64,000 nt of DNA from Gammaproteobacteria bacterium. GTDB lineage: Bacteria > Pseudomonadota > Gammaproteobacteria > Ga0077536. The stretch is taken from positions 77,622 through 141,621 of the forward strand of contig JACQWY010000002.1 of NCBI GenBank assembly GCA_016209015.1, in the 5' to 3' direction. Below, in pieces: positions 4,712 to 61,352 of the stretch (its first letter is position 1; each line of letters begins with the position of its first letter). The notes under the pieces are model-generated. The model did not search any database. It saw only the letters and a list, made by a program, of their open reading frames with translations, and was not told the DNA's origin. The position numbers and the translations under genes are program-made.

Positions 4712-6058
4712 ATGTCAGCGAACAACACTGCGCCGGCCGGCCAGAGCGGAAAGGACAGCGGCTCGTCCGGCGCCGGAGGCGGCAAGGTCGCCCATCTGTT
4801 CGGCGCGAAGAAGAAGAGCGGAACGCGCAGCGCGGCGCTCGGCTCCGCGCAGCTCCACATGCTCGCCGGCGCCCTCTGTGCAGGCGCGGTCGGCGTGTTG
4901 CTGTTCGCGGCGGCGGGCGCGGGCGTGACGGCGGGCTTCCTCGTCACGGCGGGACTCGCGATTGCGCTCGTCGGCAGCGGCGTCGCGGTACTCGCGAAGC
5001 TCTCCAAGGCGGCAGCCGCGGCGCAGAAGTCGCTCGAAGAGCAGACGGCGAAGCACGCGACGGAATCCCAGCGCAACCAGTCGGCGATCCTGCGTCTCCT
5101 CGACGACATGGGCGCGCTGGCCGATGGCGATCTGACCGTGAAGTCGAAGGTGACCGAGGACATCACGGGCGCGATCGCCGACTCCGTGAATTACACGGTG
5201 GGCGAGCTCCGCAGCCTCGTGACCCGCGTGAACGACGCTTCCGCGGAAGTGCTGCAGAAGACGACGGGCGCCGAAGCGCTCTCCGTCACGGTGCTCGAGG
5301 CCGCGCAGCGACAGGCCGACCAGATCAAGCTCGCCAGCACGCAGGTGATGGGCGTCGCGGACTCGGTGAAGGACGTCTCGAGCAAGGCGACGGACTCGGC
5401 GCGCGTCGCGGGGCGCTCACTCGAGGCGGCGGAAGCCGGCGGTGCCGCGGTGGAGAACTCCATCAAGGGCATGAACGAAATCCGCGAGAACATCCAGGAG
5501 ACCTCGAAGCGCATCAAGCGTCTCGGCGAGAGCTCGCAGGAAATCGGCGAAATCGTCGAGCTCATCTCCGACATCACCGAGCAGACGAACGTGCTCGCCC
5601 TGAATGCGGCCATCCAGGCCGCCGCGGCGGGTGAAGCGGGCCGCGGCTTCGCGGTGGTCGCCGAGGAAGTGCAGCGTCTGGCCGAACGATCCGGCGAAGC
5701 CACGAAGCAGATCGGCAATCTCGTGAAGACGATTCAGCGCGACACGCAGGACGCGGTGGCCGCCATGGAGCGCAGCACGGTCGGCGTGGTGGAAGGCGCG
5801 AAGCTCGCCGACGCGGCGGGTGATTCGCTGCGCCAGATCCGACAGGTGTCGAACGATCTCGCCCGCATCATCGAGGACATCTTCGGCAAGACGAAGGAAC
5901 AGGCCGTGGTCGCGGACGAAGTGGCGAACACGATGCAGTCGATCCTCGGCATCACGGACGAGAACACGCGGGGCACGATGCAGATGACGGAATCCGTCAC
6001 CCAGCTCGCGAGCCTCGCGAGCGAGCTCAAGCAATCGGTATCCGGATTCAAGCTCTAG
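4712..6058 (+). CDS. pilJ: Methyl-accepting chemotaxis protein PilJ
   Basis: ORF track. There is an N-terminal TM region. The MCP signalling domain with the highly conserved hairpin tip is LALNAAIQAAAAGEAGRGFAVVAEEVQRLAERS. SD GGAGG lies upstream of the ATG. Confidence 0.85.
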   Translation: MSANNTAPAGQSGKDSGSSGAGGGKVAHLFGAKKKSGTRSAALGSAQLHMLAGALCAGAVGVLLFAAAGAGVTAGFLVTAGLAIALVGSGVAVLAKLSKAAAAAQKSLEEQTAKHATESQRNQSAILRLLDDMGALADGDLTVKSKVTEDITGAIADSVNYTVGELRSLVTRVNDASAEVLQKTTGAEALSVTVLEAAQRQADQIKLASTQVMGVADSVKDVSSKATDSARVAGRSLEAAEAGGAAVENSIKGMNEIRENIQETSKRIKRLGESSQEIGEIVELISDITEQTNVLALNAAIQAAAAGEAGRGFAVVAEEVQRLAERSGEATKQIGNLVKTIQRDTQDAVAAMERSTVGVVEGAKLADAAGDSLRQIRQVSNDLARIIEDIFGKTKEQAVVADEVANTMQSILGITDENTRGTMQMTESVTQLASLASELKQSVSGFKL

Positions 6059-6074
6059 ACGGAGCGTACGCCCA

Positions 6075-9000
6075 ATGATCGCTCAAACGGACATGGACGC
6101 CCTGCGCATCGTCGCTCCGGAAATCGACCGGGTCCTCGCGCTGACCGCGTCCGCCCTGACCGACGGCGCCAACGCCGAGCTCGCGCGTCAGTGCGAGCGC
6201 GATCTGCATCGTCTGCGCGGGGCCTTCGAGATGGCGGCGGCGCCGGGACTCGCACGCTTCTGCGAATGCTTCACCGCGGGGTACTGCGCGAGCCTCGCCG
6301 ATCCCGCGAATCGCAGCCGCTGGAACGCGCTGCTCGAACGCGCGCTGGCCGCGCTCAAGCGCTGCGTCAGAGACGCCGAGCACAACGGTGCAGTGCAGTC
6401 CATGCTGCTCTTCCCGCTCTACGTGGACATGAAGCGCGCGCTCGGTGAGGACAAGGTCAGCGCGAGCGATCTGTACTATCCCGAGGTCGATGTCGAACGC
6501 AGCCGCGGCGAACCGGTCACTCTGCCTGCGCAGGACTCGACCGCGGTCGCGAAACTCGCCCGCGGCCGCTATCAGCGGGCACTGCTCGCCTGGCTGCGCG
6601 GCGACGGCGTAGCGCCGGCCGCGATGCTGCGGGCCGTGACGACGGTCGACCAGTTGTTCGGCGCGCAATCGAATTTCTGGTGGGTGGCCTGCGGCTTCCT
6701 CGACGGCATCCGGGCCGGCGGCTTCACCATAGACTCCCATCTCAAGCGCATCTGCGCGCGCATCGATCTGCAGATTGCCCGCATCTGCGACGGGGCGAAC
6801 CTCGTCTCCGACGCCCTGCTGCGCGAGATGCTGTACTTCATCGGCCGCTGCACGGTCGACACCACGCGGATCAGCGAACTGCGCGAGGCTTATGCGCTCG
6901 ACGACGACGCACGTAACGGCGCCGCGGAGAGCGACGATCCCGCGGCGCGTGCCGCGGCGCTGAGCGCGGTACATACCGCCCAGCGTACGTTGGAAGGCCT
7001 CGCTGGCGGCGGTGCCGGCGCGGAAGCGGCTTTCGATGCCGCGATCGAGCGGCTCAACGCCTGCATCGACACGCTGCGCGAGCCCGCAGTGAAGGCGGCG
7101 GGCAACGCCGTCGGTACCGAAGCGCAGGAGCTGCGCTCGGGCGGACGGAACTACGAGAAAGACGCCGTCTCGCTCGCCGGCCTGCTGCTCGCGCTCGAGC
7201 GGGTGCTCGACGAGCGCACCGCCCAGCCCGGCGCGACGGCCGAGCTCAATGCCCTGCTCGAAGGGGGAACCACGACCGGCGGCACGACGAACCGTCTCGA
7301 TGCAGCGCTCGGGCAGGAGATCCGCAAGAGTCTCAAGCAGGTCGAGCATGCACTCGAGAGCCTGACCGCGGCCGCCGTGCCGCGCGACGTCGCACCCGCG
7401 CTGAATCCGCTGCGCCGGGCCGGGGCCGCGCTCGCGATCGCGAGCCAGACCGAGGCCGCGCAACTGCTCGCGCACGCCGAAGGCCTGGTGCGCGAGCTCG
7501 CGGACTCGCCGACGCCCGAAACGCAAATCGAGACGCTCGCCGAATGCCTCGGCGGCGCCGAGTTGTTCGTCGAGGCCGCGTGCCGCGGCAGCAACGGTCG
7601 CGAGGTGATCCTGCCGCTGCTGCGCAAGCTCGGCCTCGCCCCTGCCGACGAGCCGCCCGGCGAGCCGGCCGCGACCCAGCCGGCGACGGTCGAACAAGCG
7701 CTCGCACTCGAACGTCGCGGCGTGCAGGACCTGTTGCACAACTGGCAGCGCTCGAGCGAACGCGTCGTCGATGAATTGAAGAACAACCTGCAGGCGATCC
7801 ACCAGGACGCGCTGCTCGTCGCCGATCGCGAAGTTCGCGAACGATCCGCGCACGCGCTGTCGCTGCTCCAGGCGGCGCCGCCGGCGATAGATCCGCAACT
7901 GCGCGACGCCGTCGCCGCCGTCGGCGGCGTGATGGGCGGCCGCGGCCAGGCGCCGGCGGCCGTCGACGTCGCTTCCGATCCCGAGGTGCTGGACGTCTAT
8001 CTCGAGGAAGCGCGCGAAGTGCTCGATACGGTACGTGCGCATCTCGCGAGCGACGCGCGCACGCCGGAGGGTCTGCGCGAAGTCCGCCGCTATTACCACA
8101 CGCTGAAGGGCAGCAGCCGCGTCGTCGGCCTCGTCCACATGGGCGAAGTGGCGTGGAGCGTGGAACGCCAGTTGAATGCCTGGCTCGATGCCGACCTCGA
8201 CGCGACGCCGGCATTGCTCGCCGCCGTCGGCGCGGTCGCCGAAGCGTTCGCGGGCTGGGTGGAGAATCTCGCCGATCACGGCAGCACCGGCGTCGATGCC
8301 GCGGCACTGCAGGCCGGGATTGACGCCTTGACGCCGGCCAGCGCCACCGCGCCGGAGCCCGTCCCGGCGGCGCAAGCCGACGTCGAACCCGAGCCCCCCG
8401 CCGCGGGCGCGGCGCCGAATCCCGATCACGTGCGCCTCGGTCCCGAGTTCACCGTCTCCCGCGCGCTCCTCGACATCTTCCGCTCCGAAGCCGCGCAGCA
8501 CCTCGCTACCCTGCGCACGGACGCCGACTCGGCCGCGCCGGGCGATACCGTGCGGCGCACCGCGTTGCGCGCCGCCCATACGCTGGCCGGGATCGGGCGC
8601 ACCGTACGCATCGACGCCGTCGCGGGACTCGCCGCCGCGCTCGAAGCGTGGCTCGAGCGCATGCTCGACGCCGGTGCGGCGATGGAGGAGGAGTGCCGCG
8701 CGCTGTTCGTCGAAGCCGTCGACAGTCTGGGCGCGATGCTCGCGACCATCGAGGGCGAAGCGCTGCCCATCGCCGACACCGCGCTCCGCGACAAGCTCGA
8801 AGCCGCGGCTGCCGCGGTCGTCGCCGCCGAGGAAGCGGCATTCGTCGAACAGGAGATCGCGATCCCGGCCGCGCTGCTCGAGGCGGCGTTCATGCAGGGC
8901 GTGAATCCGGAAATCCTGCCCGTCGTGCTGGACGAGGCCCACGACCTGGGCGCCGCGATTGGGCGCGAGCTCGTCGGCTGGCGCGAGTCGCCCGACGAGG

Positions 9001-23572: not shown

Positions 23573-25180
23573 TCACGCCCCGGATGGCGGCCCCGTCAGG
23601 AACCAGTAGCCGTCCTCGTCGCGCGCGGCGCTCGCGCCGTGCCACCACAAGTCCGGACGGCGCGACCAATAGCTCTCGAAATAGCGCGCGGGATCGTTCC
23701 ACAGACCGCGCGTCATGCCGATCGACGAACGCCGCATCACGAGCGTGCCGCGGCCCGCACCGCGGATGCTGGAGCACGCCTCGTCGACGAGGTCGACGCC
23801 GCTGCCCGGTACCGCCGCGCTGAACGCACAAGGCTTCAGGGGATGCAGCAGCGTATCGGTCAATACGCCGCCGCCGAGGTCCGGCGCGCCCGAGCAGCCG
23901 AGGATCGGCACGCGCCGCCGGCACACGTGCTCGAACGTCCAGTGCCAGGCCTCGGGCCTCCAGTCCTCCCCGGCCGCCACGACGAGCCGCAGGGCGCGCA
24001 GGTCGTAGCGTTCGATGCCGTAACCGCCGGCGCGGGTCGCGGCCCAGAGGCTCGCGGGCGAGGCGCCGAGCACCGTGACGTGGTGCTCCTGCAGCAGGCG
24101 CCACAACCGCGCCCCGTCGGGCGCGTGCGGCTCACCCTCGGCGAGGATCAGCGTCGCCCCGAGCAGCGTCGCCGCGACGAGTTGCATGGGACCGGCGAGC
24201 GAGCCCGGATCGCTCATCCACAGCACGCGATCCTCCGTCCGCCAATCGAGACACAGACCGAAATCGAGCGCCATCTTCGTCATGAAGCCGCAATGCGTAT
24301 GCACCGTGCCGCGCAGGCGTGCGCTGTTCGTCGCGGCCGGCGCGTAGTAGACGAGGGCCGGCGTGTCGGCCGGGACGACGCGCGGCATGAAGTCGCGCCG
24401 CGCGGGCTTCCGTACCCGGTGCCACCAGCGGTCACGCATCGAACGCCCGGTTCGCTCGTAGCCGAGATGGCGGACCGTGACGACGCGCTTGAGCGCCGGC
24501 GCCGCGACGAGTGCGGCGGCGAGCGTCGCGCGGAAGTCCTGCGGCACACCGCCGCTGGAGCCGCCGTCGGCCATCAGCATCGCGACGGCGCCGGAGTCGC
24601 GGAGCAGCGCGCCGAGGCGCGCGGCATCGACGTCCGCGGGCACCGGCAGGACGACCGCGCCCACCGCGAGCACGGCGAAGAAGCCGATCGCCCATTCCGG
24701 GATCGCCGGCATGTACAGCGCCACGACTTCGCCGGGCCCGATGCGCAGCGCCTCGAGTCCCGCCGCGACCCGTCCCACTTCGGCGTCGAGCTCGGCATAG
24801 GTGTAGCTGCGCCGACTGCCGTCCTCCCCTTCCCAGACGAGCGCGGGCTTGCGCCACACCGGCGTGTCGCGATGTCGCGTGAGGCAATTGAGCGCGAGAT
24901 TCGTCTCGCCGTCGAGGCACCACACGGTCCACGGCATACCGAACGCGGGCTCGCAGACCTTGGAGTAGGGCCGGGAGAAGCGCAGCCCGAAGTATCCGAT
25001 GCACGCATCCCAGAACCAGCCCGGATCCGCGTCGGCGCGGGCCACGAGCTGCGCATACGCGGCCTCCGGCGCGCCACCGATGCCGAGGGTCCGCATGAAA
25101 TGCGTCAACCGCGCCTGCCGCTTCAGATCGGCGTCGGCGTTCCAGAAGATATCGCTCGCGAATTTCGGGGATTCCAGCAT
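23573..25180 (-). CDS. AMP-dependent synthetase/ligase family protein (acetyl/acetoacetyl-CoA synthetase-like)
   Basis: Start MLESPKFASDIFW at 25180. The complement of ATG was verified, and GGAGG lies upstream. The N-terminal region resembles the ACS N-domain, and the architecture is ANL-superfamily-like. The family was assigned by overall resemblance only. Confidence 0.55.
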   Translation of the reverse strand: MLESPKFASDIFWNADADLKRQARLTHFMRTLGIGGAPEAAYAQLVARADADPGWFWDACIGYFGLRFSRPYSKVCEPAFGMPWTVWCLDGETNLALNCLTRHRDTPVWRKPALVWEGEDGSRRSYTYAELDAEVGRVAAGLEALRIGPGEVVALYMPAIPEWAIGFFAVLAVGAVVLPVPADVDAARLGALLRDSGAVAMLMADGGSSGGVPQDFRATLAAALVAAPALKRVVTVRHLGYERTGRSMRDRWWHRVRKPARRDFMPRVVPADTPALVYYAPAATNSARLRGTVHTHCGFMTKMALDFGLCLDWRTEDRVLWMSDPGSLAGPMQLVAATLLGATLILAEGEPHAPDGARLWRLLQEHHVTVLGASPASLWAATRAGGYGIERYDLRALRLVVAAGEDWRPEAWHWTFEHVCRRRVPILGCSGAPDLGGGVLTDTLLHPLKPCAFSAAVPGSGVDLVDEACSSIRGAGRGTLVMRRSSIGMTRGLWNDPARYFESYWSRRPDLWWHGASAARDEDGYWFLTGPPSGA

Positions 25181-36737: not shown

Positions 36738-36765
36738 GGAAAGGGGGTCAGGTTCGATATCCCGG
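36738..36765. repeat. Solo half-copy of the GGGAAATGGGGTCAGGTTCGAATTCGCGG repeat family (left arm only)
   Basis: GGAAAGGGGGTCAGGTTCGATATCCCGG matches about 24 of 29 positions of the left arm of the maeB-flanking repeats. No partner arm is nearby. Confidence 0.3.
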
Positions 36766-36831
36766 ATGACACCGGTCGGATCGGCACCGTGACCGTCGGA
36801 GACATCGAGCCTGCCCCGTCTCCCGAAGCGC

Positions 36832-37674: not shown

Positions 37675-37705
37675 GCGCGCATGCTACCAAGCGAAAGCAA
37701 GTTAT

Positions 37706-37775
37706 CAACAGGGGTCGGAGGGACTTTCTCGTTCTCGCACGCTAAAGCAAAAGTCCCTCCGACCCCTGTGGATAA
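37706..37775. repeat. Long near-perfect inverted repeat (27-bp arms, ~22-nt spacer) between two minus-strand genes
   Basis: GTTATCAACAGGGGTCGGAGGGACTTT ... AAAGTCCCTCCGACCCCTGTGGATAAG. There is one mismatch in 27 bp. Confidence 0.5.
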
Positions 37776-44378: not shown

Positions 44379-44440
44379 TCGAGCCTCCCCAACTTTTCCG
44401 TGTCCGGGGCCGAGCATACGCTGGCCACCTGCGGATTAGT

Positions 44441-44613
44441 AGGTTGCCATGAAAGAGCGGCGGCGCCGGCGGGAAATGGGGTCAGGTTCGAATTCGCGGG
44501 GGAGCGCCCGGGTACGCGCCATTACGTTCGCCGCGAAATCGAACCTGACCCCAATTCCCTCTACGCGTCTTTCATAATTGCGGGCGCTGCTGCACAAACT
44601 TCATGACTGTTGG
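44441..44613. repeat. MITE/REP-like palindromic repeat, copy 1 (family with 21-bp arms GGGGTCAGGTTCGAATTCGCG / CGCGAAATCGAACCTGACCCC)
   Basis: Read directly. It is about 170 bp and about 90% identical to copy 2 at 47114..47284. Terminal inverted arms flank a ~35-nt spacer. Confidence 0.6.
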
Positions 44614-44748
44614 GCTGACGCAGGAAGCCCAACACCCGAAGTTTCATCGAGCGACAGCGACCCGCCCGGAGCTTGCAGGATCCTGCCGTCGACGAAGCAG
44701 TTGCACGCCGCAGTGTTGGGCTTCCTGCGTCAGCCCCACCTGCGCCAT
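44609..44748. repeat. Pair of 28-bp inverted repeats (GTTGGGCTGACGCAGGAAGCCCAACAC / revcomp) spaced ~85 bp apart, in the maeB 5' region
   Basis: Read directly. This is a second structured element adjoining repeat copy 1, immediately upstream of the maeB start at 44818. Confidence 0.4.
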
Positions 44749-47113: not shown

Positions 47114-47284
47114 GGTTGCCGTGAAAGAAGTGCGGTGCGGACGGGAAATGGGGTCAGGTTCGAATTCGCGGGCGAGCGCCCGGGTACGGGTCACCGCGTC
47201 GGCCGCGAAATCGAACCTGACCCCAATTCCCTCTACGCGTCTTTCATGATTGCGGGCGCCGCACGAACTGCATGACCGTGGGGC
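47114..47284. repeat. MITE/REP-like palindromic repeat, copy 2 (same family as 44441..44613)
   Basis: GGGAAATGGGGTCAGGTTCGAATTCGCGGGCGAGCGCCCGGGTACGG...GCCGCGAAATCGAACCTGACCCCAATTCCCTCTACGCGTCTTTCATGATTGCGGGCGC. It lies immediately downstream of the maeB stop. Confidence 0.6.
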
Positions 47285-47481
47285 TTCCTTCGTCGGCCCC
47301 AAACCTACCGTCCTCCCACGCCCCGTGCTACGCTCGCAGCGCGTGCCGGACGCACGCAAGACCGCTGCTCTCGAGGTGCGAACGGGACACGGCGCTGCAT
47401 GGTCCATTGCTTCCCTCGCGATCAGCCGGCCCGCCGCCGCACGGCGGCTTCACCACGTTCCGAGCCAGCGAGGGGAAAGCC

Positions 47482-50320: not shown

Positions 50321-51526
50321 CTAACAGGCGGAGGCCGATGCGAGGAACGCGAGCAGGAGCCGCGTCACCTCGACAGCCTGCTCCTGCTGCACCCAGTGGC
50401 CGGCGCCGTCGACGAAATGACAGCCGAGCATGCGCGTGAACGTCTGCTCGCGCATGCGCTCGATCGCGCCGGGCACCTGATAGTGACCCCAATCGTGCCG
50501 CCCGGAGATGAAGCACGCGGGCCGATCGATCGTCCGCCCTGCGAACACTTCGAGCTCCGCGCGATAGCGATCGGTGAAGTTCGCGCGATACCAGTTCAGG
50601 CCGCCCTGGAAGCCCGTGCGCGAGAACTCCGCCGCGTAGACGGCGAGCTCGGCCTCGGTCAACCATTTGCATTTCGCGATCGCCGCCGCATCCGGCATGA
50701 ACGGCGCACAATCCTCCGGCATCGTCCGATCGCGGTTCATCACGTAGTAGGTCGGCAGCTTCGCGAGCTCCACGGCGCTCCAGGACGCGAGCGGCTGCGG
50801 CTCGTTGCCCGGCCAGTCTGCGCTCTTGTAGTGGTAGTAGGCGCGGAGGAACGCGTGCACGAAGGAATTGGGGTCAGGATCCATCAGCCCCGCGCTAATG
50901 GATCCTGACCCCATTGCGCTGCCGCGCATGTCGGTCGCCGCTTCGCGCGTCGCGTAGTAGCGCCAGTAGTGCTTGCGCGGTGGTTCGAGCGCGGCGAGAG
51001 CGGCGTGGATGTCTGGTTCGGATTTCCGTTCCTCGCCGTCGGTGATCGCGGGCGCGCCGGTGAACGGCGCGCTCATCACGACGACGGCTTCGAAGACGTC
51101 CGGACGCAGCAGCGCGCACCAGCCCGCGACGAACGTGCCGAAGTCGTGCCCCATGACGCACGCGACGTTCGGGATGCCGAGCACGTGCAGCAGGCCCAGC
51201 ACGTCGCGCACGAGATTCAGGATCCGGAACGGCGCGAGATCGCCGTCGTAGTCGGCGTTCCAGCCCGTGGTGCGGCCGTAGCCGCGCTGGTCGGGCGCAA
51301 TCACGTGATAGCCCGCGGCGGCGAGCGCAGGCATGAGCTTGCGCCAGCTATAGGCGAGCTCGGGAAAGCCGTGCAGCAGGAGCAGGCAGGGGCGGCCCGG
51401 CGTTTCGAAGCCGGCGTCGAGGACGTGCAGGTCGAGGCCGTTCACGCCGGGGACGAGGCGGGAGCGAATGACGGGATCGAGCGTCGGGGTCTTCAGCGGA
51501 TCGATGGTGGCGGCCTCCGCGGGCAT
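50321..51526 (-). CDS. Alpha/beta-hydrolase (epoxide-hydrolase-like) carrying an in-frame 54-bp palindromic-repeat insertion
   Basis: 401 aa. HGFPELAYSWR, nucleophile elbow GHDFG, and the distal His region are typical of epoxide hydrolases. The segment MGSGSISAGLMDPDPNS is encoded by the repeat at 50865..50918. Confidence 0.75.
   Translation of the reverse strand: MPAEAATIDPLKTPTLDPVIRSRLVPGVNGLDLHVLDAGFETPGRPCLLLLHGFPELAYSWRKLMPALAAAGYHVIAPDQRGYGRTTGWNADYDGDLAPFRILNLVRDVLGLLHVLGIPNVACVMGHDFGTFVAGWCALLRPDVFEAVVVMSAPFTGAPAITDGEERKSEPDIHAALAALEPPRKHYWRYYATREAATDMRGSAMGSGSISAGLMDPDPNSFVHAFLRAYYHYKSADWPGNEPQPLASWSAVELAKLPTYYVMNRDRTMPEDCAPFMPDAAAIAKCKWLTEAELAVYAAEFSRTGFQGGLNWYRANFTDRYRAELEVFAGRTIDRPACFISGRHDWGHYQVPGAIERMREQTFTRMLGCHFVDGAGHWVQQEQAVEVTRLLLAFLASASAC
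50865..50918. repeat. Short variant of the GGGGTCAGG palindromic repeat family embedded in-frame within the hydrolase coding sequence
   Basis: GGAATTGGGGTCAGGATCCAT-N13-ATGGATCCTGACCCCATT. The terminal ~16 bp of each arm match the maeB-flanking repeats. Length is 54 bp, or 18 codons. Confidence 0.45.
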
Positions 51527-61063: not shown

Positions 61064-61306
61064 CAGGCGTAATCGGACGTTTCTTCGCGGGTTGCACGGC
61101 ATCGATCCCCTTACTCGCGGCCCGGGAACCGAAGAATTCATCCGATTACGCCGGCGCTAAGGAAGCTCTGAACAAGTTCAGAGCTTCCGGCGGCACAGGG
61201 ATGTGCCGCCGTGAACAGTGGCGTAAGCCATTGTTCACGTAAGGTTGGCAAGAACCACGCTTCTTGCCGACCGTGCTCTGAAAAGTCCAGGATGTCCAGG
61301 ATGGAC
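61064..61306. ncRNA. Candidate structured RNA / REP-array: six consecutive perfect or near-perfect hairpins filling a convergent intergenic region
   Basis: GGCGTAATCGGA...TCCGATTACGCC (61064-61140). GGAAGCTCTGAAC-AA-GTTCAGAGCTTCC (61161-61188). GGCGGCACA-GGGA-TGTGCCGCC (61189-61210). GTGAACAGTGGC-GTAA-GCCATTGTTCAC, with a GNRA loop and a G-U pair (61211-61238). GTTGGCAAGAA-CCACGC-TTCTTGCCGAC (61244-61271). GTCCAGGATGTCCAGGATGGAC (61285-61306). Local GC is reduced. Coding status of the two overlapping track ORFs is rejected. Confidence 0.3.
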
Positions 61307-61352
61307 TTATTGAGAGCTTCCCTAACGGTACCTACGAAGCGCTCATGGGACG

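Follow-up and report, generated by a model that had tools for sequence, protein, structure and literature searches.

A putative short member of a local palindromic repeat family inserted in frame in the cap region of an epoxide-hydrolase-like gene of a gammaproteobacterium

Results

The hydrolase locus and its palindrome

The window, that is, the whole stretch of gammaproteobacterial DNA analysed here (64 kb), carries on its minus strand a gene for an epoxide-hydrolase-like alpha/beta hydrolase, and a palindrome related to repeats flanking maeB lies within this gene. The features are as follows.

50321..51526, minus strand: epoxide-hydrolase-like alpha/beta hydrolase gene, 401 aa
50858..50920, minus strand: 63-nt block replacing 15 nt of the nearest orthologues, codons 203-223, SAMGSGSISAGLMDPDPNSFV (DNA and protein alignments)
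50864..50915, minus strand: 52-nt putative short copy of the palindromic repeat, gene sense AATGGGGTCAGGATCCAT-TAGCGCGGGGCTG-ATGGATCCTGACCCCAATTCC
50869..50888, plus-strand coordinates: left arm of the hairpin (repeat finder, I15)
50894..50913: right arm of the hairpin (repeat finder, I15)
36738..36826, plus strand: degenerate full-length family copy directly after a stop codon
44469..44561, plus strand: full-length 93-nt family copy upstream of maeB (repeat finder, I2)
47141..47233, plus strand: full-length 93-nt family copy downstream of maeB (repeat finder, I1)

In plus-strand letters, positions 50864-50915 read GGAATTGGGGTCAGGATCCAT-CAGCCCCGCGCTA-ATGGATCCTGACCCCATT, the middle part being the N13 segment, and form a near-perfect palindrome with the tips AATTGGGGTCAGG / CCTGACCCCATT. 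An earlier note on this DNA had described a 54-bp palindrome at 50865-50918; the palindrome is real, but the coordinates were one base off and the string is 52 nt long. The arms detected by the repeat finder are 20 nt each and 95% complementary. As gene-sense RNA, the segment forms a 20-bp stem with a folding energy of -41.3 kcal/mol, compared to a mean of -20.8 kcal/mol for shuffled sequences (z = -5.8), and 0 of 200 shuffles were as stable. Terminal inverted repeats, as expected of a miniature inverted-repeat element (MITE), are present.

A local repeat family

The two 93-nt copies flanking maeB fold into hairpins of -63.5 and -72.1 kcal/mol, and the formation of one long hairpin is a family trait that the hydrolase copy has too. 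At 36738-36826, where a solo half-copy (36738-36765) had been reported earlier, we found instead a complete, degenerate hairpin. When GGGGTCAGGATCCAT was searched in the window with at most 2 mismatches, the only matches were at 36744, 44538, 47210, 50870, and 50898, all of them in palindrome arms, and these 5 matches compare with 0.08 expected from shuffles. The exact 9-mer core GGGGTCAGG/CCTGACCCC was present only in the four family elements within the 64 kb.

On the minus strand, the hydrolase copy has the same orientation as the 93-nt copies and has in common with them AATGGGGTCAGG, then CGCGGGG, and then CCTGACCCCAATTCC. The tips that delimit the family, AATGGGGTCAGG ... CCTGACCCCAATT, are both found in the hydrolase copy, with 15 nt (GGAATTGGGGTCAGG) and 12 nt (CCTGACCCCATT) identical to the 93-nt copies; the sharing with the maeB-flanking repeats that had been noted before is thus confirmed, but not its extent, which had been given as about 16 bp of both arms. 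Neither the full length of the family (about 89-93 nt) nor its inner arm GGTTCGAATTCGCGG is found in the hydrolase copy, from which about 40 central nt of the 93-nt copies are missing. The inner arms also differ, with GGTTCGAA(T/A)T in the 93-nt copies corresponding to GGATCCAT on both arms of the hydrolase copy, and such paired changes are expected of a subfamily of a hairpin element. Judged by its sequence, the hydrolase copy is a short or divergent subfamily member of the local family.

The maeB-flanking palindromes lie within a longer direct duplication (44439-44616 and 47138-47285; about 150-180 bp, 86-90% identity), which includes an outer inverted pair, TGAAAGA...TCTTTCA. Two strong palindromes of the window that are unrelated to the family were located at 37702-37775 and 44609-44739 (I4 and I3), and the unrelated pairs reported by the repeat finder were TTATCAACAGGGGTCGGAGGGACTTT / AAAGTCCCTCCGACCCCTGTGGATAA, with 26-nt arms of 96% complementarity, and GTTGGGCTGACGCAGGAAGCCCAACAC, with 27-nt arms 77 nt apart. 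At 23703-23794, ARAGORN called a 92-nt tRNA-Ala(CGC) for which the Rfam tRNA model gave no match at gathering score; the ARAGORN result is probably spurious, or else marks an unusual gene.

In-frame insertion relative to homologues

The database searched contained thousands of homologues of the hydrolase. The two nearest orthologues were L001 and L002 (88% and 86% nt identity, respectively), and proteins were compared in two alignments, one with the 15 best-spread homologues and a larger one with 119 (62-87% identical). In the DNA alignment, L001 and L002 read GGC TGC CCG CAA GGC ATC CAC, an uninterrupted site in which TGC CCG CAA GGC ATC encodes CPQGI, compared to GGC AGC GCA ATG GGG TCA ... 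AAT TCC TTC GTG CAC in the window. Replacement of 15 nt by 63 nt results in a net gain of 48 nt, so that the insert measures 16 codons relative to the orthologues, and not 54 nt or exactly 18 codons as previously stated.

Residues 207-222 were gapped in 119 of the 119 homologues, the two nearest orthologues included, and neither hairpin arm was found in the orthologous DNA of L001 and L002. The former, which is syntenic (Metallophos, hydrolase, SDR), carried no copy of the core motif. Had orthologues without the repeat carried the same segment, it would have been ordinary coding sequence; none of the 119 homologues has it. Together with the match of both tips to the family, these gaps support the proposal of the earlier note that a member of the repeat family was inserted in the hydrolase gene. 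The four codons before the insert were changed as well, from CPQG in the homologues to SAMG in the window. The position changed to M in the window is Q in 111 of the 119 homologues, and the following G, present in all 119, was kept as G206.

The ORF is intact, as had been claimed, and the peptide MGSGSISAGLMDPDPNS (residues 205-221) had been correctly translated; across the insert the product reads ...R-G-S-A-M-G-S-G-S-I-S-A-G-L-M-D-P-D-P-N-S-F-V-H.... Of the element's six frames, only two contain no stop, and the gene is read in one of these, which fits survival through a selection filter and not a design for coding. In the alignment with orthologue DNA, no direct repeat indicative of a target-site duplication flanked the hydrolase copy and no clean boundary was seen, the flanks being rewritten. 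These features, along with the four rewritten codons, indicate that the event was not a simple cut-and-paste. The flanks of other hairpin copies continue the palindrome.

Fold, motifs, and selection of the host enzyme

The product matches Abhydrolase_1/6, and in a sequence search against solved structures it matched the mycobacterial epoxide hydrolases EphA/EphB (E ~1e-45). The catalytic motifs HGFP (52-55), the nucleophile D128 in GHDFG, D345, and H377 in GAGHW were all present and invariant in the 119-homologue alignment; the HGXP oxyanion motif, the Asp nucleophile in sm-x-D-x-sm, and the His/Asp relay that characterize epoxide hydrolases are thereby found. Epoxide hydrolases have two ring-opening tyrosines in the cap; Y187, Y191, Y230, Y260, and Y261 were invariant here, and sequence alignment did not match the cap to that of the solved structures. 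An AlphaFold2 model built from 120 sequences had a mean pLDDT of 86.9 and a pTM of 0.89, and in Foldseek comparisons the target-normalised TM was 0.80-0.86 to the epoxide hydrolases 6unw, 2e3j, and 5cw2. The model placed the insert in the cap domain, between helices 194-202 and 219-233, with low confidence (pLDDT <50) at residues 206-216. By this prediction, the insert forms a surface loop of 16 disordered residues in the cap domain, distant from the catalytic core.

Outside the insert, the branch dN/dS of the window gene was 0.27, compared to 0.28 and 0.16 for the two orthologues. Among 117 homologues of greater distance, 170 positions are conserved to 95% or more; at these, the window gene and the two orthologues showed 10, 10, and 10 deviations, respectively, mostly at shared positions. 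Between the two insert-bearing strains described below, there were 6 synonymous and 3 non-synonymous codon differences, while about three quarters are expected to be non-synonymous under neutrality (binomial estimate p ~0.012, on 9 codon differences). The branch dN/dS values and the 6:3 ratio indicate that purifying selection continued after the insertion. Considering the predicted loop location, the intact motifs, the dN/dS similar to that of the orthologues, and the 6:3 codons, the insertion looks tolerated, and sequence and model together favour a protein that accommodates the loop over one that has lost activity.

The allele in other assemblies

An identical insert-bearing gene was found in two Logan assemblies from different runs. 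A second metagenome-assembled genome (MAG), GCA_016218315.1 (L164), was 99.1% identical in nt to the window over 16.7 kb, with 138 mismatches, and had the same hydrolase hairpin and both maeB-flanking copies. The presence of the allele in two MAGs and two independent read-set assemblies indicates that it is not an assembly artefact, and the insertion is fixed in the two sampled strains.

The two MAGs also differ by a 178-bp segment (window 61146-61323), which is absent from L164, where the sequence at the empty site is CATCCGA|AACGG. The inverted repeats AAGGAAGCTCTGAAC ... TTGAGAGCTTCCCT bound the segment, which resembles a MITE of another kind; its polymorphism between the strains implies that this element moved recently in the species.

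Hairpins with the same tips inside hrpA

In other genomes, the first 20 stop-to-stop ORFs running across a hairpin were inspected, and hrpA of L086, a Rhodanobacteraceae MAG, was the only convincing intragenic case, with L048 as a possible second. The remaining ORFs were rejected, as the hairpin lay upstream of the domain or past its end, or there was no domain. In L086, the hairpin (5509-5579) corresponds to HrpA residues 242-265, between the DEAD and Helicase_C domains. HrpA thereby gains KWGQVHFSGRSGKSVDPRNKNEPDPI at a place where the linker of E. coli HrpA is shorter, and related peptides (WGQVHF ... EPDP) were seen in HrpA homologues of several other Xanthomonadales lineages. The proteins P0124 and P0125, which are 81-86% identical and the closest to L086 outside its own clade, do not have the insert peptide.

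Perfect hrpA stems of 20 to ~33 bp in the same frame were found in L086, L161, L162, and L165, and the L165 hairpin is a short form (20-bp stem and 4-nt loop) comparable to the hydrolase copy. Compared to L086, paired changes mark the arms of L161 and L162; in L160 the arms have decayed. These hrpA hairpins end in the tips GAAATGGGGTCAGGTTC, exactly as the window's 93-nt copies do. L163 has an empty site, GAAACGATTTCC, which resembles the outer tips joined. The hairpins in the RecA1/RecA2 linker of hrpA reflect either one old insertion with subsequent maintenance and loss, or repeated insertion at a hotspot.

Wider distribution and the search for a mobilising partner

When species-representative genomes were scanned for TGGGGTCAGG...CCTGACCCCA, at least 120 loci were obtained (L005-L124), and among the matches listed, such palindromes occurred in many phyla. 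As control decamers were equally frequent in viral contigs, the number of cross-phylum matches alone proves nothing, and a breadth beyond chance is unproven. In the fetched hairpins, TCT just inside the core and an A-rich stretch just outside it are both conserved, and near-identical 28-nt arms (TGGGGTCAGG[C/T]CTGACATTCGGACATTT) are common to Massilia and Parachlamydiales; these sequence features argue for a true relationship within at least part of the cross-phylum set.

At gathering score, Rfam gave no family for the hairpins, either in the window or in 18 loci that carry one, and a full-text literature search with the core sequence gave unrelated, eukaryotic matches. All-against-all BLAST of 4,972 ORFs from ~155 hairpin loci yielded no recurrent neighbouring transposase or RAYT-like partner, and no related autonomous insertion sequence (IS) with the same ends was seen in the fetched loci. 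An IS30-like transposase gene (371 aa) with the ends TCGTTTCAGG/CCTGAAACGA in L104 (Ilumatobacter MAG, 5970-7160) is inserted inside a hairpin and is not its parent. Short-form siblings with a GGATCC core were sought in JGI metagenomes, and none of the 35 loci found was related; most belonged to another soil family, TGTGCCAGGGGGTCAGGATCCTTGGCACATGTGCC. The palindromic family TGTGCCAGGGGGTCAGGATCCTTGGCACATGTGCCAAGGATCCTGACCCCCTGGCACA, abundant in soil metagenome contigs of ~70% GC (L125-L159), is separate from that of the window. An origin from a tRNA minihelix, suggested by GGTTCGAAT in the arm, was discarded because the wider hairpin set has TCT, not TTC, after the core.

Discussion

The reading that we prefer, with a probability of about 0.8, is that a short member of a hairpin-forming REP/MITE-like family was inserted in the cap region of the hydrolase and is tolerated as a probably near-neutral passenger. 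A non-autonomous short member would have entered the coding region of the cap ('lid') in the lineage of this species, after its split from the nearest known orthologues, in an event that exchanged 15 nt for 63 nt. We infer that a family copy arrived through transposition or recombination. Three circumstances would explain why the insertion was kept: a gain divisible by three, a reading frame free of stops, and a position in the loop that joins two cap helices. The outcome would be a disordered surface loop of 16 residues in a gene that stays under purifying selection, with its catalytic machinery untouched, and the hydrolase is presumably still active.

Alternatively, the enzyme might have been inactivated or crippled, the gene being a recently formed, still undecayed pseudogene. 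The overwritten C-P-Q-G turn, with its Q in 111 and its G in 119 of 119 homologues, lies immediately ahead of the conserved helix FLRAYYH of the cap, the substrate tunnel of epoxide hydrolases is formed by the cap domain, and the mRNA would contain a hairpin of -41 kcal/mol. However, the ORF is intact in two strains with G206 kept, the branch dN/dS of 0.27 resembles that of the orthologues without excess changes at conserved positions, and the 6 synonymous and 3 non-synonymous changes arose after the insertion, which makes loss of function unlikely in our estimate. It is quite improbable, too, that the hairpin in the gene is selected at the nucleic-acid level, for instance for RNase III cleavage, mRNA stability, or a pause in translation. 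The 20-bp stem is almost perfect despite a branch dS of ~0.18, and hrpA lineages that are ~72-75% identical in protein each have long perfect stems at the same linker, with arms differing by paired changes (GAGTCA/TGACTC in L161 and AGGGGG/CCCCCT in L162), but recent or repeated insertion from genome-specific subfamilies would explain perfect arms equally well, the L160 arms have decayed, and for both genes many close relatives have no hairpin.

That the segment is ordinary coding sequence with a coincidental similarity to the repeat, or a local inverted duplication produced by a template switch, is already contradicted and scarcely credible. Any palindromic decamer pair will match a few times in large collections, as in viral contigs, where control decamers gave 5 and 5 matches and the real core 4; yet the segment is absent from all 119 homologues, neither arm exists in the orthologous DNA, and the 15-nt and 12-nt tips together with CGCGGGG match a family seen three more times within 15 kb. 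Palindromes and repeats can also mis-join short-read assemblies, but an error of assembly or binning is extremely doubtful when the MAG contig, two Logan assemblies of different runs, and a further MAG with 138 mismatches elsewhere all contain the same sequence.

In-frame intragenic insertion of a palindrome is rare, and its kind is already known from RPE, BRE, BOX/RUP, and QMITE. RPEs are palindromic repeats found in frame in Rickettsia protein genes (Ogata et al. 2000, cited in PMC3184786). As with RPEs, a dispersed palindromic repeat lies in frame, the host gene is intact, and the added peptide is absent from orthologues; the hydrolase copy likewise kept the frame, lies in a constrained gene, and occupies a predicted surface loop. 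RPEs are ~105-146 bp and belong to obligate intracellular Rickettsia, whereas the hydrolase copy is 52 nt, GC-rich, and from a gammaproteobacterial MAG of free-living type; it shows no sequence similarity to RPEs, and is the one intragenic copy within 64 kb.

REPs and REPINs, which RAYT (Y1) transposases mobilise, resemble the window family as well: both consist of short, GC-rich, imperfect palindromes that fold into long hairpins and lie mostly between genes. REPs are targets for IS insertion and are usually lineage-specific. Like them, a hairpin was targeted by an IS (the IS30-like element in L104). Unlike them, the family has the tips GGGAAATGGGG / CCCCAATTCCC without a GTAG-type tetranucleotide, and its tips recur in several phyla among the matches listed; no RAYT gene was seen in the ~155 hairpin loci, which had no recurrent neighbour. 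Bacterial MITEs offer further parallels: BRE of Bordetella (Betaproteobacterial repeat element) is a MITE-like repeat also found within genes (PMC3110155), QMITE1/2 of Coxiella are MITEs that fuse with ORFs (PMC5896051), and BOX/RUP/SPRITE and ERIC/YPAL have been reviewed (PMC3184786). With these elements (BRE, QMITE, BOX/RUP) the hydrolase copy has in common that it is non-autonomous, has inverted ends, and is of a kind that is occasionally wholly intragenic or extends ORFs; it differs in having no target-site duplication, and in the lack of a parent IS among the fetched loci. The supplementary BRE sequence lists did not contain the GGGGTCAGG/CCTGACCCC core, and BRE was therefore rejected as the name of the family.

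The insert can also be viewed as a case of cap-loop variation among epoxide hydrolases. Barth et al. in 2004 reportedly classified these enzymes and described length variation of the cap loop and the NC loop. The extra residues lie, as in ordinary variation, between cap helices in a naturally length-variable region, but here a mobile palindromic repeat is the source of the added length, and no other of the 120 close homologues shows it.

The hydrolase cap and the hrpA linker together raise the idea that family hairpins are maintained as perfect stems in coding loops and linkers by selection on mRNA or DNA, which we consider unlikely. If it is true, the maintained stems might serve, for example, in processing by RNase III or in pausing translation between domains, and paired arm changes between lineages would be a signature of selection on them. 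The hrpA site, where the hairpin may be present, absent, short, or long, is a tractable system for distinguishing selected stems from re-inserted ones.

With uninterrupted orthologues available and two strains sharing the insertion, the hydrolase gene would provide a clean, dated example of a mobile palindrome that adds a loop to an enzyme without killing it. The same type of element in the hrpA linker of several Xanthomonadales suggests that the phenomenon extends beyond Rickettsia-like reduced genomes. Such insertions are one route to new protein surface loops, and they mislead annotation and homology modelling.
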